Shown here one piece after another: positions 4,164 through 26,053 of a stretch of DNA of 38,417 nucleotides. The stretch spans positions 1 through 38,417 of the forward strand of contig JAJYHF010000035.1 of assembly GCA_021784875.1 (NCBI GenBank), read 5' to 3'. Origin of the DNA: a bacterium (lineage in GTDB: Bacteria > Patescibacteriota > Minisyncoccia > Phycocordibacterales > Phycocordibacteraceae). The position numbers and the translations under genes are program-made. The notes under the pieces are model-generated. The model was given only the letters and a program-made list of their open reading frames with translations, was not told the origin of the DNA and did no database searches. Position 1 is the stretch's first letter; the number at the start of each line of letters is the position of its first letter.

Positions 4164-5285
4164 ATGGGAACCGACGCGAATGACACCGGCGACATGCCGC
4201 CAAAGAGGTACATCCGCACCTTCGCGGGCGACATGAAGACGCTGCAGGGCGGCAATGAGCCGGAACTGAAGCCGCTCACAACCGCCGAAGCGGAACCGAC
4301 TCCGACGGCGCCGGGTCCTTCCATCGGGCAGGCTCACCTCATGCCCCCTCCCGAGCCGATCATTCCGACGCAGCCGATACGGGAAGAAAAGCAGGTTCCG
4401 CTAGCGCCGCCTAAGCCGCCAGAGCCGCCCGCGTCCCCGATCGAGACGTACGCAGGCGACTTTTCCGACCATGTGAAAGAAACGGGGGCCACACCTACAA
4501 CCGTTCTCGCAGCAGAGCAGGATGCTCGCGTACCGAGTGCCCCGCAGCCAACCCCTGTCCCGAGCTCGTCCCGGAGCAGCATCTGGTACATCATTGGAGG
4601 AGCTATCCTGATTGTCATCGCCAGCGTCGCCGCGTTCCTCGCGTATGCCCGATACGCATCCTCAGTGCCGCAAACCATCATACTTGCGCCGAACCTGTCG
4701 GCGCCAATCGCCGTCGATGAGCGTGCGCAGGTCTCCGGTACTGGTGAAGCGCTTATGGGCGCAATCGCTCGATCAGTCGGAACGCCGATCAAGGCAGGAA
4801 CTGTGCGACTCCTCGCCGCGACCACGACGACCACAAGCATCTTTTCCTCTCTTGACCTGTCTGCGCCTGACATACTCACGCGCAACGTGAATGCTGCGGG
4901 CAGTATGGCAGGGATAGTCGTCGCCGATGGCGTACCGAGCCCGTTTTTCATCCTCTCTGTCGCATCGTACGGAGACACCTTTTCGGGCATGCTTTCTTGG
5001 GAACCGGATATGCTGAACGACCTGTCGCCTCTCTTCCCAGCGTATGCGACAACCGTCGCGAGCACTTCCGCAACATCTTCGACACCGACCATGACGGCAG
5101 GGTTCCGCGATGAAGTCATCGGCAATCATGACGCGCGTGTGTATCGCGATGCACAGGGCCGGAGCGTCATCCTTTATGGCTACTGGAACCAAGGGACGCT
5201 TATCCTCGCACGAGACCCGGCAGCGTTTTCTATACTGTTAGAGCGGCTCGCGGCCTCGGGCAATAGCGACAACAGCGGTTCATGA
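4164..5285 (+). CDS. hypothetical single-pass membrane protein with a Pro-rich N-terminal region
   Basis: 373-aa ORF with SD GAAGGAGG upstream. One hydrophobic helix ([23 protein letters not shown]). No family recognised. Confidence 0.7.
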
Positions 5286-6871
5286 CCTCTTCTCCGTCAG
5301 AGGCTACGAAAGATAAGGCGCATTCTGCAGCCGCCGCAGCGCCGAAAACGCTCCCGCGACACGGCTACGCGAAGACGCTCGCCGCGCAACCGGTCGGATC
5401 GAACGCCGAACTGGTCGTCGTCGAAGCGGACCTCACGCGCGGTCTGCACAACTTCGCGGTCGTCGGTCTCGCGGACAAGGCGGTCGACGAAGCACGCGAC
5501 CGCGTCTCGGCCGCGATACGCCACAGCGGCTACAAGCCGCCCAAACAGCAGAACAAGCGCATCGTCCTCTCGCTCTCGCCGGCTGACCTGAAGAAAGAAG
5601 GCTCGCATTACGACCTCGCGCTCGCCGTCGCTTATCTCATCGCAGCGGGAGACCTCGAACCGCTCGAGGAAGAGGCGCTTTTCATCGGTGAGCTCGCGCT
5701 CGACGGGTCCCTACGGAGCGTTCGCGGCGTCCTGCCGCAGGTACTCGCGGCAAAACGAGCGGGCATTACGACCATCTTCATCCCGCCCGGCAACACGCGC
5801 GAGGCGCTTCTCGCCGAGAACGTGGCGATCCATGCGCCGAACTCGCTCGCAGAACTCCTCGCGCATCTGAAAGGGGAGAAGATCCTGCCGCGGCTCGTCC
5901 GCGACCGGAGCATGCCGACGCCGCCGGTTGCCCTCGATCTCGCTGATGTAAAAGGGCAGGAGAGCGCGAAACGTGCGCTCGAGATCGCGGCGGCCGGCCG
6001 GCACAACATCGTCTTCTACGGCCCGCCCGGAACCGGGAAAACGATGCTTGCCCGTGCACTCGCGAGTATCCTCCCACCACTCACGAGCGACGAAACGCTC
6101 GAGGTGACCGCGATCCATTCGACCGCCGGACTCCTCAAGGACGGCGAGGCGGTCTTCTGGCCGCCTTTCCGCGCGCCGCACCATAGCGTCTCGCATGTCG
6201 CAATCGTCGGCGGCGGCGCCTTCCCGAAGGCGGGGGAAGTGACGCTCGCGCACAAAGGCGTCCTCTTCCTCGATGAATTCGCCGAGTTCGACTCGCGAAC
6301 GCTCGAGGCGCTGCGCCAGCCGCTCGAGGACCGTGTCGTGACCGTCTCGCGCGCCCGGGCGACCGTCACCTTCCCGGCCGACTGTATGGTCGTCGCGGCG
6401 ATGAATCCGGCTGACACGCTTGCCGACGACGCTCGCGCCGCCCTGCGCGCCGCAGCCAAGCAGGCGCGCCGCATCAGCCGGCCGATCGTCGACCGGCTCG
6501 ACCTCTGGATCGAGGTGCCGCTCGTCCCGCATGAGACCTTGGCCAAGCTCGACAGGGGAGAATCGTCAGAGACGGTGCGCAAGCGCGTCGTCGCCGCCCG
6601 CACCCAAGCCGAAAAGCGGGTTGGCAGGAAAGGCGCAGCCAACGCCGCATTGACCGGCCGGCAACTCGATGAAGCAAGCGGCTTCACGCCCGCCGCGCGC
6701 GAGGCGCTCACCTCGGCGGCCGCGCGCCTCCGGCTCTCACCCCGCTCCTATCACCGCACCATGCGCGTCGCGCGCACCATCGCCGATCTCGCGAGCGCTG
6801 ATTCTGTCACCCCCGCTCACATCCACGAAGCCCTCCAATACCGCCCCCGCGGCCTCTTCGGGTTTGAATAA
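5282..6871 (+). CDS. comM: YifB/ComM family Mg-chelatase-like AAA+ ATPase
   Basis: Lon-like N-domain ([16 protein letters not shown]), Walker [14 protein letters not shown], Walker [13 protein letters not shown]-terminal [22 protein letters not shown] overlap with the upstream gene. Confidence 0.9.
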
Positions 6872-22324: not shown

Positions 22325-22684
22325 TTACTTGAGATAATGATAAGTATTTACTATTGAAATTACGAAATAACTGAACAACACCAACATGATCAATTTGTCA
22401 GGAAGAACAAAACCGAAACGTTTCTTTAAAGTTCTATTGATAAAATTCTCCCCCTCTTTTCCCAATCGTAAACGCAATCTCAATTTATCCTCAATAATAG
22501 TCAGAGGGCAATTTACAAAGAATATAATTTCAAGGCCTACAACAACCAAATAGAAAATAGTAAAGAAAAACTTAAAAGGATTTAAAAATATTAAAAACAA
22601 ACCTAAAAAACCTACGACAAGAATCGCCGTATGAATTGACACAACGGATTTCAAAACAAATAAACTAATTTTTTGTCGTTGCAT
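22325..22684 (-). CDS. DUF2784-like small membrane protein in a very AT-rich insert
   Basis: 119 aa, about 4 TM helices, and a CPLTIIEDKLRLR motif resembling the CPLT..E..LR signature I recall for DUF2784. GC is about 30 % by eye. Confidence 0.6.
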   Translation of the reverse strand: MQRQKISLFVLKSVVSIHTAILVVGFLGLFLIFLNPFKFFFTIFYLVVVGLEIIFFVNCPLTIIEDKLRLRLRLGKEGENFINRTLKKRFGFVLPDKLIMLVLFSYFVISIVNTYHYLK

Positions 22685-23657
22685 CTAGATATTCCCGCCC
22701 CTTCATAGTGAGGATGCGGCCGCGGGGGGAACGCTCGATAAAGCCGAGGCGCAGAAGATAGGGCTCATAGACGTGCTCGACGGTTTCGGGTTCCTCATGG
22801 AGCGCGGCTGCAATTGCGCGGACGCCGGCCGGGCCGCCACGGAAGCCTTCGAGAAGAGTCGAGAGATAGCGGCGATCGTCCTTGGTGAGTCCGAGCGCGT
22901 CGATGCCGAAGAGTTCGCAGGCCTCGTCGGTAAGCGCGGAGGAGAGCGGTTTCTCGTGGACTTCAGCGTAGTCACGGACGCGTTTCAGGAGTGCGTTACC
23001 CACGCGCGGAGTCGCGCGGCTTCGCGCAGCGATTGAGGCGATTGTCTCCTCCGGCGCGTCGAGGCCGAGGAGCGCGGCCGAGCGGCGGATGATCGCGCGC
23101 AGGTCCTCGTCTCCGTAGAGGTCGAGCTGATAGGTGCCGCCGCCGAAGCGCGAGCGCAGCGGGCCCGAGAGCTCGGCGACGCGGGTCGTCGCGCCGACGA
23201 GCGTGAAGGGCGGGAGCGCGAGCTCGACCGTGCGTGCCGAAGGACCCTTGCCGAGGATGATGTCGAGGTGGCCGGACTCGAGGGCGGGGTAGAGGAGCTC
23301 CTCGATCTTGCGCGAGAGGCGATGGATCTCGTCGATGAAGAGGACGGTGTTCGGGTCGAGGTTGGTGAGGATGGCGGCGAGGTCGCCGGCGCGCTCGATC
23401 GCGACGCCGGAGGTCGTCTTCAAGGGTGATTCAAGCGTCGCGGCGACGAGGTGGGCGAGGGTTGTCTTCCCGACGCCCGGCGGGCCATAGAAGAGGAGGT
23501 GTTCCGGCATACTGCCGCGCTTCTTGGCGGCGTCGAGGGAGATCCGAATACTCGCTTTCACCTGCGCCTGGCCGACATATTCATCCCACGAAGCGGGGCG
23601 GAGAGCCGCATCGAGCGAGGCAGCGGGCAAGGAGGACTTCTCAGGGGGGGTTGACAT
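22665..23657 (-). CDS. ruvB: Holliday junction branch migration ATPase RuvB
   Basis: LLFYGPPGVGKTTLA, VLFIDEIHRL, TLVGATTR, plus a winged-helix C-terminus. Confidence 0.95.
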   Translation of the reverse strand: MSTPPEKSSLPAASLDAALRPASWDEYVGQAQVKASIRISLDAAKKRGSMPEHLLFYGPPGVGKTTLAHLVAATLESPLKTTSGVAIERAGDLAAILTNLDPNTVLFIDEIHRLSRKIEELLYPALESGHLDIILGKGPSARTVELALPPFTLVGATTRVAELSGPLRSRFGGGTYQLDLYGDEDLRAIIRRSAALLGLDAPEETIASIAARSRATPRVGNALLKRVRDYAEVHEKPLSSALTDEACELFGIDALGLTKDDRRYLSTLLEGFRGGPAGVRAIAAALHEEPETVEHVYEPYLLRLGFIERSPRGRILTMKGREYLDATTKN

Positions 23658-23679
23658 AAAAAACCGGTGGTGCTATATA
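23651..23679 (+). promoter_or_regulatory. near-consensus sigma70-type promoter pointing away from ruvB into the ORF-free region
   Basis: TTGACA (23651-23656), exactly 17-nt spacer, TATATA (23674-23679). The -35 element overlaps the ruvB start codon on the other strand. Confidence 0.5.
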
Positions 23680-23692
23680 TGATAGCACGGTT
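23662..23692 (-). terminator. hairpin followed by a U-run on the minus strand
   Basis: GTGCTAT/ATAGCAC 7-bp stem (23670-76 / 23682-88) plus an outer AACC/GGTT. A run of six A (23658-63) reads as UUUUUU on the minus strand. This overlaps the plus-strand -10 element, so the two readings compete. Confidence 0.35.
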
Positions 23693-24276
23693 ACTTGATC
23701 CTGTTCATACTCCTCTGGGCAAGGCTTGACGGCTTCGGGCGATTCCCCAAGGACTCTCTGGTCCGGCACTTCGGTGCTGGCACTGGGGATCTCCTCAGGT
23801 GCTTCGTCTACCCGGCATTTCGCCGGTTTTTGCCCTGAGGAGTACGGACGGGATTTTGTTTTTCTGGCATCAAGATATCAGATCGGTATGAAAATGAACG
23901 ACCGCGGCTTTCAAAGCCCGCGGTCGAATGTGAACGAAAGAGCGGCTACCAGACGATAGGAACGGTGCGAGTGTTTACCCGGTAACCGAGCCTTTCACTT
24001 ATGATGACGGCCATCCTAAGTATGGTATTTTTGCAGCATTTTTTGGGAAAGATGCTCACACTCCCGTGTTTATTTTTATGAATTCTCCCTGCCTCGCCAC
24101 CAAGGCTTTTGCGTAAGCTGGGCAGGGCTTCGTTCGGTATTCCGTAGAACACGAAAAACAAAACCCCTTTGTACCTTTTTACGCCTCCAATGACGGGTGG
24201 CGCCCCCTCTTCTCCCGGCTTTCCTGTAACCATAACTCTCCTTTCCCACTGAAAAGTTCAACATCCCCAAGGATGT
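23686..24276 (+). ncRNA. candidate large structured RNA(s); family not recognised, strand and ends uncertain
   Basis: 713 nt lie between ruvB and pilB with no credible ORF. GC is about 48 % by eye. Hairpins are many, including a canonical cUUCGg tetraloop hairpin with a G-U pair that exists only on the plus strand (23763-23780). GGTTAC (23689-94) is complementary to GTAACC (24227-32). Confidence 0.3.
23812..23831 (+). terminator. intrinsic-terminator-like hairpin about 145 nt downstream of the promoter
   Basis: CCGGC-AUUUC-GCCGG followed by TTTTT (23827-23831). Confidence 0.35.
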
Positions 24277-24370
24277 AAATATACGCTACCGCACATAACC
24301 AATTTCGCAACCCAAAAAGGGTGGATTATGGTTGGTTGTACTCTGTCCTATAGCGTGCTTTTAGAATCCA

Positions 24371-26053
24371 TTAGCGGGGCAGGTCGACGGTGGCGGCGAC
24401 TTCGGAGAGGGAAGTGACGCCTGCGAGCGCCTTGAGGATGCCGTCCTGCGCCATGGTGAGGTAGCCCTGCTTGGTGGCGAGCTTGGCGATGTCGGCATCG
24501 GGCGGATTGTCGCGAAGGAAGTGCGCGAGCTCGTCGTCCATGAAGATCGCTTCGTAGAGGCCGATGCGGCCTTTGTAGCCGGTACTATCGCCTTCGGCGA
24601 CTGGTTCCCAGACGGTCTCGATCTTCTCCGGGATGAGGGACTTGTCCTCGAGCGGTTCGAATACCTTGGCGATCATCGCCTTCTCCTCGTGGGTGAGCGG
24701 CCGCTCTTTCTTCTGGTCGGGATCGAGGCGGCGCAGGAGGCGCTGCGCCATCGAGACGGTGACGGCCGAGCCGAAGGACTTCGGGTCCGCGCCGAGGTCC
24801 ACGAGGCGGGGGAAGGTGCCCGCCGCGTCGTTGGTATGCAGGGTCGAGAAGACGAAGTGACCGGTGAGCGCGGCCTGAATGGCGATATCAGCCGTCTCGC
24901 CATCGCGGATCTCGCCGACCATGATGACATCCGGGTCCTGGCGGACGATTGCGCGGAGACCGTCGGCGAAGGTGTACTGCTCACCCGCGACCTGCGTCTG
25001 CACGATACCCTCGAGATGATATTCGACCGGATCCTCGATGGTGATGATCTTGGTTTCCGGCGTATGGATCTCGCGGAGGAAGGAATAGAGCGTGGTTGTC
25101 TTACCCGAGCCGGTCGGACCGGTGGTGAGGAGCATGCCGTTCGGGCGCCGGATCTCCTCTTCGAGGCGAGCGAGGAGCTTCGGGTGGATGCCGAGCTCCT
25201 TATAGGAAACCTGGGTCGCCTTCGGATCGAGGATACGCATTACGATCGCTTCGCCGTAGTTGCCGGGGATGAAGGAGACGCGCATCTCGACCTCGCCGCC
25301 GTCGGCGGAGGTGACCGAGAAGCGGCCGTCCTGCGCGCGGTTGGTGACGTTGAGCTTCACGCCTGAAAGGAGTTTGATGCGTGAATTGATCTGTCGCGCG
25401 GTCTCAGAGTCGAAGAAGTAGACGTCGGTGAGTACGCCGTCGATGCGGAGGCGCAGACGCGTCTTCTCCTCTTCGGGCTCGATATGGATGTCCGAGGCGC
25501 GGAGCGCGAAGGCGCCTGCGAGGACGGTCTCGAAGATGCGCGAGACGCGATTGAGCGATTTCAGGTTGACCGCTTCGTCGAGTTTCGCGGTGAGTGCGCC
25601 GCGAGCACTGCTGTCGCGGCTTATCTCGTCGAACACGCCCTGGTCGACGGCGAAACTGCCCGCTCTCGATTCGGTAGCGAGGGAGAGGTCGCCGTAATGT
25701 TCGAGCGCCAGATCGATACTCTTCTTCGAGGCGAGGTATTCGGTGAGGGAGAATCCTCGAGCGACGAGGTCCTCGCGGAGCTTCTGATACGCGGGATTGT
25801 TCGGGTTACGGACGGCGATGGAAAGCGCTTCGGCAACGCGGGCGAAGGCGACCGTTTCTGCCTCGCGCGCGTCCTTCTCCGGGATGGTGCGGAGCGCGTC
25901 ATTGTCGATCTCCTGCATCGAGAGGTCGGCATAACCCATGCCGTACTTCTCGGAGAGAATACGGGCGACATCCTCCTCCTCCCGCAGATGTGTCTCGGCG
26001 AGCTCCCGCTCCTCCTTGCTCGTGTCGAATGGCAGGTCCATAAAGGGCATCAT
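24371..26053 (-). CDS. pilB: GspE/PilB-family type II/IV secretion (type IV pilus assembly) ATPase
   Basis: 560 aa. N-terminal GSPII_E_N-like domain. Walker A TTGPTGSGKTTTLYS. DPDVIMVGEIRD. FVFSTLHTNDA. Confidence 0.9.
   Translation of the reverse strand: MMPFMDLPFDTSKEERELAETHLREEEDVARILSEKYGMGYADLSMQEIDNDALRTIPEKDAREAETVAFARVAEALSIAVRNPNNPAYQKLREDLVARGFSLTEYLASKKSIDLALEHYGDLSLATESRAGSFAVDQGVFDEISRDSSARGALTAKLDEAVNLKSLNRVSRIFETVLAGAFALRASDIHIEPEEEKTRLRLRIDGVLTDVYFFDSETARQINSRIKLLSGVKLNVTNRAQDGRFSVTSADGGEVEMRVSFIPGNYGEAIVMRILDPKATQVSYKELGIHPKLLARLEEEIRRPNGMLLTTGPTGSGKTTTLYSFLREIHTPETKIITIEDPVEYHLEGIVQTQVAGEQYTFADGLRAIVRQDPDVIMVGEIRDGETADIAIQAALTGHFVFSTLHTNDAAGTFPRLVDLGADPKSFGSAVTVSMAQRLLRRLDPDQKKERPLTHEEKAMIAKVFEPLEDKSLIPEKIETVWEPVAEGDSTGYKGRIGLYEAIFMDDELAHFLRDNPPDADIAKLATKQGYLTMAQDGILKALAGVTSLSEVAATVDLPR

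Follow-up and report, generated by a model that had tools for sequence, protein, structure and literature searches.

A conserved plus-strand RNA gene of about 177 nt between ruvB and pilB in Kaiserbacteria-type bacteria, with a 6S-type polymerase decoy as one possible role

Genomes of the candidate phyla radiation (CPR, or Patescibacteria) are tiny and contain very little non-coding DNA, and to our knowledge almost nothing is known of regulatory RNAs in the CPR. Contig JAJYHF010000035.1 (38,417 nucleotides (nt), all of which was analysed and is referred to here as the window) raises the question of what occupies a gap of 713 nt between ruvB (22665-23657, minus strand) and a gene for a PilB-type secretion ATPase (24371-26053, minus strand; pilB). 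The flanking genes are readily identified by Pfam (RuvB_N, 3e-65, and T2SSE, 2e-104, respectively), and the gap has a G+C content of 0.495, as against 0.659 for ruvB and 0.628 for pilB, in agreement with the low value noted in an original prediction made from this DNA. That prediction regarded the gap as encoding a large unclassified structured RNA. Comparison with related genomes shows that there is indeed a conserved RNA here, but that it is a good deal smaller than the gap.

The comparison set consists of 80 ruvB loci from one-genome-per-species contigs, whose RuvB proteins are 77-86 % identical to that of the window (81 loci with the window included); all are labelled as CPR, and as Kaiserbacteria, Paceibacterota or Parcubacteria. 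When the 713 nt are used as a query (blastn, nhmmer), all 80 loci match at 73-91 % DNA identity, only at query positions ~26-206. The matched part corresponds to window ~23683-23863, immediately upstream of ruvB and on the other strand. Long blocks of columns between 23699 and 23853 are conserved at close to 100 %, and this conservation is lost abruptly past a U-run at 23854-63. The conserved element is thus 23687-23863 on the plus strand, ~177 nt, transcribed divergently from ruvB and convergently with pilB. The comparison of homologous intergenic regions that the original prediction called for thereby divides the gap, with the first ~177 nt being conserved and covarying and the DNA downstream being unconserved.

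A covariance model of the element (R1) finds a single copy in 81/81 loci at 98-207 bits, and the reverse strand scores 15-44 bits. One weak R1 match elsewhere, in locus L078 at 4592-4812, is merely a long terminator-like hairpin. Metagenome contigs scanned for motifs without regard to context, and then with R1, yield 20 further members, each of which has ruvB and/or pilB in the same arrangement wherever its contig reaches a neighbouring gene, with RuvB identity ranging down to 74 %. The head-to-head linkage with ruvB is found in every locus reaching ruvB, ~100 in all; a second protein search for more distant RuvB relatives returned only close ones, with at least 80 % identity. The RNA gene is single-copy and fixed between ruvB and pilB across a Kaiserbacteria-type clade.

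RNAalifold and single-sequence folding agree on the structure of the element, which can be drawn as a rod or as a four-way junction. Its ends form a closing helix, P1, in which 23697-23722 pairs with 23830-23855 to give 24 base pairs (bp; 10 + 8 + 6), and a repeat search registers the same feature as 25-nt terminal inverted arms. Compensatory changes occur in 15 of 23 P1 pairs, and the helix takes in the covarying 13-position helix 23708-20 / 23832-44 that had been spotted in the single sequence. P1 is followed by a 14-nt 5' junction (or 'bubble') strand, GGCUUGACGGCUUC (23723-23736), that is near-invariant in the alignment. Within it a 4-bp mini-hairpin is predicted (23723-26 / 23731-34), for which all of the observed changes keep pairing, each of them being one-sided. 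The long irregular arm P2-P6 (23737-23809) contains invariant tandem G-U pairs (CUGG/CUGG) and a variable, covarying apex with a UUCG loop at 23770-73; the C(UUCG)G hairpin at 23763-80 with its G-U pair, another element of the original prediction, is a genuine covarying part of the RNA. On the 3' side of the junction there is a 5-bp hairpin (23812-23826) in which each of the 5 pairs has undergone compensatory changes and pairing is kept in 99.4 % of cells, where a cell is one pair in one sequence, and in the fold a UUUU separates this hairpin from the 3' strand of P1 (23830-23855), which runs into the U-run.

The helices are strongly supported by covariation. In a MAFFT alignment of 79 sequences, in which the 3' hairpin is misaligned, 87.7 % of cells pair and 34 pairs with 231 cells are compensatory, a result reached by none of 500 shuffles, while controls with slid partners give 41-51 % paired and 34-64 compensatory cells. 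An alignment of 95 sequences made with the model, and so biased towards the structure on which the model was built, has 95.3 % of cells paired and 361 compensatory cells in 38 of 59 pairs (0/500 shuffles reach this; slid-partner controls, 40-50 % paired and 33-97 compensatory cells). There are 808 G-U cells versus 88 A-C cells, such that the same helices are 72.6 % paired on the minus strand as opposed to 87.7 % on the plus strand, and the minimum free energy of the core is -89.7 kcal/mol on the plus strand (z -7.3) and -70.7 kcal/mol on the minus strand (z -5.5). The excess of G-U pairs, the fold energy and the model scores, together with the conserved promoter and same-strand terminators described below, identify the element as a plus-strand RNA. 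A small protein gene was considered and rejected: the sole open reading frame (ORF) across the core (47 amino acids) is intact in only 2/95 homologues, and segment lengths fall 49/24/22 over the residues modulo 3. We are highly confident that 23687-23863 is a real plus-strand RNA gene of ~177 nt.

The promoter of this gene is of the sigma-70 type, near to the consensus, and extends into ruvB. In the window a TTGACA -35 hexamer (23651-23656, plus strand) shares bases with the start codon of ruvB (CAT at 23655-57 when read on the plus strand), and is followed after a 17-nt spacer by TATATA (23674-79), which is part of an extended -10 element, TGC TATATA (23671-23679); both hexamers and the spacer are as the original prediction had read them. 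A promoter of the form TTGACA, 16-18 nt, TGcTAnnAT precedes the RNA in 76 of the 81 loci, and the other five, including the window, have the variant TGCTATATAT. This overlap of the -35 box with the start codon of ruvB is seen in all of the promoters detected (76/81 loci). In most relatives the -10 region is a palindrome, ATGCTAGCAT, which reads as the extended -10 sequence TGcTAGCAT on both strands, and a consensus scan of the window shows a promoter-like site that could serve ruvB on the minus strand (TGAACA, 17 nt, TG-TATCAT; 23679-23707). The gene ruvB itself has no Shine-Dalgarno box, whereas neighbouring small genes in the relatives do. The arrangement of these motifs suggests that the RNA and ruvB promoters overlap back to back and probably exclude each other. 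The original view of an unclassified plus-strand RNA driven by this promoter thus holds, in that the promoter is kept in relatives and the helices both covary and show a strand-specific excess of G-U pairs.

Transcription of the RNA is predicted to start at a conserved CA (23686/87), giving a variable 5' tail (23687-23698), and the likely 3' end is the U-run at 23854-23863; in relatives the RNA ends at a U-run or at a canonical terminator hairpin just downstream on the same strand. In ~25 relatives a structured insertion of 40-150 nt separates the core from the conserved start region (TAnCACAG), which leaves the promoter in place at ruvB and provides the RNA with an added 5' domain. Six loci (L009, L010, L015, L025, L039 and L046) share a conserved structured 5' extension of ~140 nt with a long-range helix, CAAAACGGCGUC...GACGCCGUUUUG, and shorter hairpin inserts are found at this position between promoter and core in other relatives.

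The remaining 507 nt of the gap (23864-24370) are a strain-specific spacer outside the conserved RNA, with no blastn or tblastx matches in 200 related loci. Their fold z-scores (-0.68 on the plus strand and -1.73 on the minus strand) are like those of shuffled sequences, whereas 23687-23866 has a plus-strand z of -7.3, and the z of -5.95 for the whole region is due to this first module alone. The two closest relatives, L201 and L202, with RuvB proteins 96 % and 90 % identical to that of the window, are homologous through ruvB and the RNA, but the homology breaks at 23857-23865. In L202, the relative aligned on the pilB side, homology resumes exactly at the pilB stop (24371). Between the RNA end and pilB these two genomes contain unrelated genes, one of which, in the closest relative, encodes an IS4-type transposase. 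In 92 loci the RNA and the pilB stop are separated by -5 to 2253 nt (median, 41 nt), and this variability and the unrelated contents indicate that the interval is an insertion hot spot, with the 507 nt of the window being one strain's cargo. Spacer contents differ from genome to genome, and include small zinc-ribbon-like, NDK-like and other ORFs (compare L201:1-2944 and L202:424-1004). There is no conserved downstream gene led by the RNA, as the ORFs that follow it in the relatives are mutually unrelated.

These comparisons do not support a single RNA of 713 nt or 545 nt, because conservation, covariation and above-chance folding all end at ~23863, at the U-run. Of the downstream helices in the original prediction, the hairpin at 23899-23926 and the CCCTGCC/GGCAGGG helix (24086-24127, to within 1 nt) are present in the sequence, but both lie in DNA with no counterpart in the 200 loci. 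GGTTAC and GTAACC are likewise found to within 1 nt, but not as the closure of a 545-nt domain, since GGTTAC falls within the 5' tail, which is unconserved, and GTAACC within strain-specific DNA.

Duplications of the RNA 3' end are associated with the insertions in some relatives. In 12 relatives a second copy of the RNA 3' end borders the insert. We also note inserts of ~85-100 nt that follow the 3' strand of P1 and end in a second CAUAUGGACGGGA plus a U-run, forming a mini-P1 terminator (L002, L004, L005, L008, L010, L020, L032, L036, L044 and L053, at about locus position 5700-5800). By analogy, the direct duplication of the RNA 3' end looks like the attachment (att) site pattern of tRNA and transfer-messenger RNA (tmRNA) genes. 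As at the integration sites in those genes, the DNA just 3' of the window RNA is an insertion hot spot, but the RNA gives no tRNA-like sequence or fold match, and there is no integrase beside the inserts examined.

What this RNA is cannot be read from known families. Rfam finds no match in the gap at gathering thresholds, in keeping with the original judgement that none of the known RNAs compared by eye fits, and this applies to either strand; at E <= 10 the window and 13 other family members give only chance matches (group-II D1D4-2, gltS, AdoCbl-II and mir-2545). A literature search on 6S or non-coding RNA in CPR, Patescibacteria, Parcubacteria, Kaiserbacteria and Saccharibacteria returned nothing relevant. 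The RNA family is new to Rfam and to the literature searched. A partner RNA acting in trans was also sought in the window, and only four 14-nt complementarities were found, approximately the level expected by chance.

The layout and dimensions of the RNA come closest to those of 6S RNA, and especially of its Firmicutes type. 6S RNA is ~200 nt long and rod-shaped, its closing stem being joined through a central region to an irregular apical arm. The window RNA can likewise be drawn as a rod with a closing stem formed by its ends, an irregular apical arm, conservation in its centre and a strong stand-alone promoter, and its length of ~177 nt between the predicted ends, from promoter to U-run or terminator, lies within the 160-200-nt range. 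The arm lengths correspond as well, with ~36 nt from the predicted 5' end to the junction and an apical arm of 74 nt, and both arms are supported by covariation. In free Bacillus subtilis 6S-1 RNA the 3' bubble strand contains a stable 5-7-bp hairpin and the 5' strand a weak predicted hairpin (PMC8876501), and the window RNA similarly has a 5-bp hairpin in its 3' strand and a predicted weak one in its 5' strand. C23725 is position 39 from the predicted start, near the nt 40 at which the 6S-1 product RNA starts, and could have a similar template role.

A plausible scenario by analogy, to which we give a probability of roughly 0.4, is that the RNA is a 6S-type decoy of RNA polymerase. An abundant rod-shaped RNA would sequester the housekeeping holoenzyme of RNA polymerase through its mimicry of an open promoter, and the enzyme would read the invariant 5' junction strand together with the adjoining strand of the closing stem. 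From the junction region the enzyme might also transcribe a short product RNA, beginning near C23725. The remaining 500 nt of the gap are unrelated accessory DNA inserted between the RNA gene and pilB. Another RNA that invites comparison is Ms1, which is ~300 nt long. Ms1 of Actinobacteria is described as 6S-related and as binding the polymerase core (PMC9130861). Like the window RNA, Ms1 is lineage-specific and 6S-shaped, was missed by the 6S model and was traced by gene synteny (PMC9130861). Ms1 differs in its length and in coming from another phylum, and the likeness noted is one of shape and synteny.

Several observations weigh against the decoy. None of the Rfam matches at E <= 10 for the window and 13 other members is to 6S (RF00013), 6S-Flavo or the signal recognition particle (SRP) models. 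The centre has the 5-bp 3' hairpin, and its 5' strand may close into the conserved 4-bp helix; as changes in this helix all preserve pairing, the centre may be, in the predicted fold, a closed four-way junction instead of an open bubble. Inspection by eye revealed no convincing alternative pairing that a product RNA could trigger. A core of 43 nt is nearly invariant in most of the family, whereas 6S RNAs are usually less conserved in sequence; the window RNA differs from 6S in this much higher sequence invariance, in its fixed head-to-head position with ruvB and in having no evident product-RNA switch. A search of the sequence analysed for ndk or beta-CASP genes, as possible markers of a separate 6S locus, found none. 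Expression data are also mixed, with three metatranscriptomes from the window's own study containing nothing from the locus. Many other metatranscriptome runs, on sediment, wastewater, wetland and soil samples, do include contigs with the consensus core, and one contig of 193 nt is the RNA almost end to end; other contigs continue into pilB or ruvB, and the contigs are unstranded. Expression of the RNA gene is plausible.

A near-equal probability attaches to a new clade-specific housekeeping or regulatory RNA that is unrelated to 6S and acts as the RNA part, or the sponge, of a ribonucleoprotein. Such an RNA could be recognized through the closed four-way junction, the invariant 43-nt core and the tandem G-U pairs, which would fit with the very high sequence invariance around the junction, the 5' mini-helix kept by pair-preserving changes, the lack of an Rfam family at any threshold and the absolute head-to-head linkage with ruvB in the ~100 loci that reach it. 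The partner protein is only postulated, however, the ruvB linkage is possibly plain synteny within one family-level clade, and the overall dimensions suit 6S equally well. In one version a protein that binds junctions, such as RuvA or RuvB, would read the four-way junction, ruvB being adjacent; counting against this, the junctions that RuvA is known to bind are of DNA and not of A-form RNA. More broadly, the RNA could belong to an undescribed class of abundant non-6S housekeeping RNAs of Kaiserbacteria-type CPR, with a polymerase bound in a novel manner or a RuvA/RuvB-type protein as its partner, and with its expression mechanically coupled to that of ruvB, because the shared palindromic -10 box is proposed to bar simultaneous occupancy of the two promoters; we hold this about as probable as the 6S-type decoy.

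Other explanations carry little weight. It is improbable that the RNA is a known housekeeping RNA (SRP RNA, RNase P RNA, tmRNA or Y RNA) diverged beyond the reach of Rfam, even though a strongly promoted, single-copy and clade-universal gene would be expected of one. There is not even a sub-threshold match to the SRP, RNase P, tmRNA or Y RNA models, and ARAGORN reports no tmRNA at the locus. The small SRP RNA (4.5S) resembles the window RNA in being single-copy, rod-like and universal, but its apex is the conserved Ffh-binding part, whereas that of the window RNA is its most variable part, is capped by UUCG and not GNRA, and has neither the GNRA-capped helix 8 nor its loops. Still less probable is an element of the minus strand, either a 5' leader or riboswitch of ruvB or a pilB-ruvB intercistronic region. 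The position directly upstream of ruvB, the location of pilB on the same strand as ruvB, the missing Shine-Dalgarno box and a minus-strand fold that also exceeds shuffles (z -5.5) could each be cited for it, but the ratio of G-U to A-C cells (808:88), the poorer pairing (72.6 % versus 87.7 % of cells) and the lower model scores (15-44 versus 98-207 bits) oppose it, the promoter and terminators face the plus strand, and inserts of 40-150 nt part the core from ruvB in many relatives. We consider it very unlikely indeed that all 713 nt are one structured RNA. The whole-region z-score and several local hairpins downstream are in its favour, but the excess stability belongs to the first 180 nt alone (z -0.68 for the downstream 507 nt), the core is followed by a U-run or terminator, and the downstream part is without a homologue in 200 loci, its place being taken by unrelated DNA in the relatives with 96 % and 90 % RuvB identity. 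A miniature inverted-repeat transposable element (MITE) or relic inverted repeat, to which the 25-nt terminal arms might point, is just as hard to credit, as there is one copy per locus at a fixed site and orientation in ~100 genomes (~1.4 Mb searched), with its own conserved promoter, covarying internal helices and a strand-asymmetric use of G-U pairs.

Among the various other features of the gap, the spacer is not strictly free of ORFs, contrary to the original description. An orphan ORF of 95 amino acids (23946-24233, minus strand) is preceded by AAGGAG, which resembles a Shine-Dalgarno box, and downstream of its stop are the 23899-23926 hairpin and a T-rich tail. The ORF has no Pfam match and no homologues among 5.8 billion proteins, to which extent the description stands, and it may be an accessory gene or spurious. 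The spacer also contains a 15-nt inverted copy (93 % complementary) of the RNA 3' tail, GGGAUUUUGUUUUUC (23850-23864), at 24153-24167, and short direct repeats of core motifs at 24118-30 and 24264-73. A degraded second copy of the RNA was considered for these repeats and rejected, with R1 scoring less than 7 bits there when its filters are off; the repeats may be chance or scars of past insertions. The group-II intron D1D4-2 match noted above (24061-24172, minus strand; 20.7 bits against a gathering threshold of 36, E = 0.11) lies in this unconserved spacer and is probably chance. On the other side of ruvB, a DUF2784 gene of ~30 % G+C (window 22325-22684) separates ruvB from yebC. The closest relative, L201, lacks this gene and has yebC 36 nt after ruvB, and the gene is thus a recent insertion.

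The comparison with relatives corrects the size of this RNA from 713 nt to 177 nt, and reveals a clade-universal, single-copy and strongly promoted RNA gene with a covariation record among the clearest obtainable from metagenomes. The family merits an annotation model, and R1 already separates its members (98-207 bits) from all else (44 bits or less). If the RNA is a true 6S-type decoy, RNA-based global control of the polymerase persists under extreme genome reduction, in a form overlooked by current annotation; if it is not 6S, it marks a ribonucleoprotein new to science in a major bacterial lineage.

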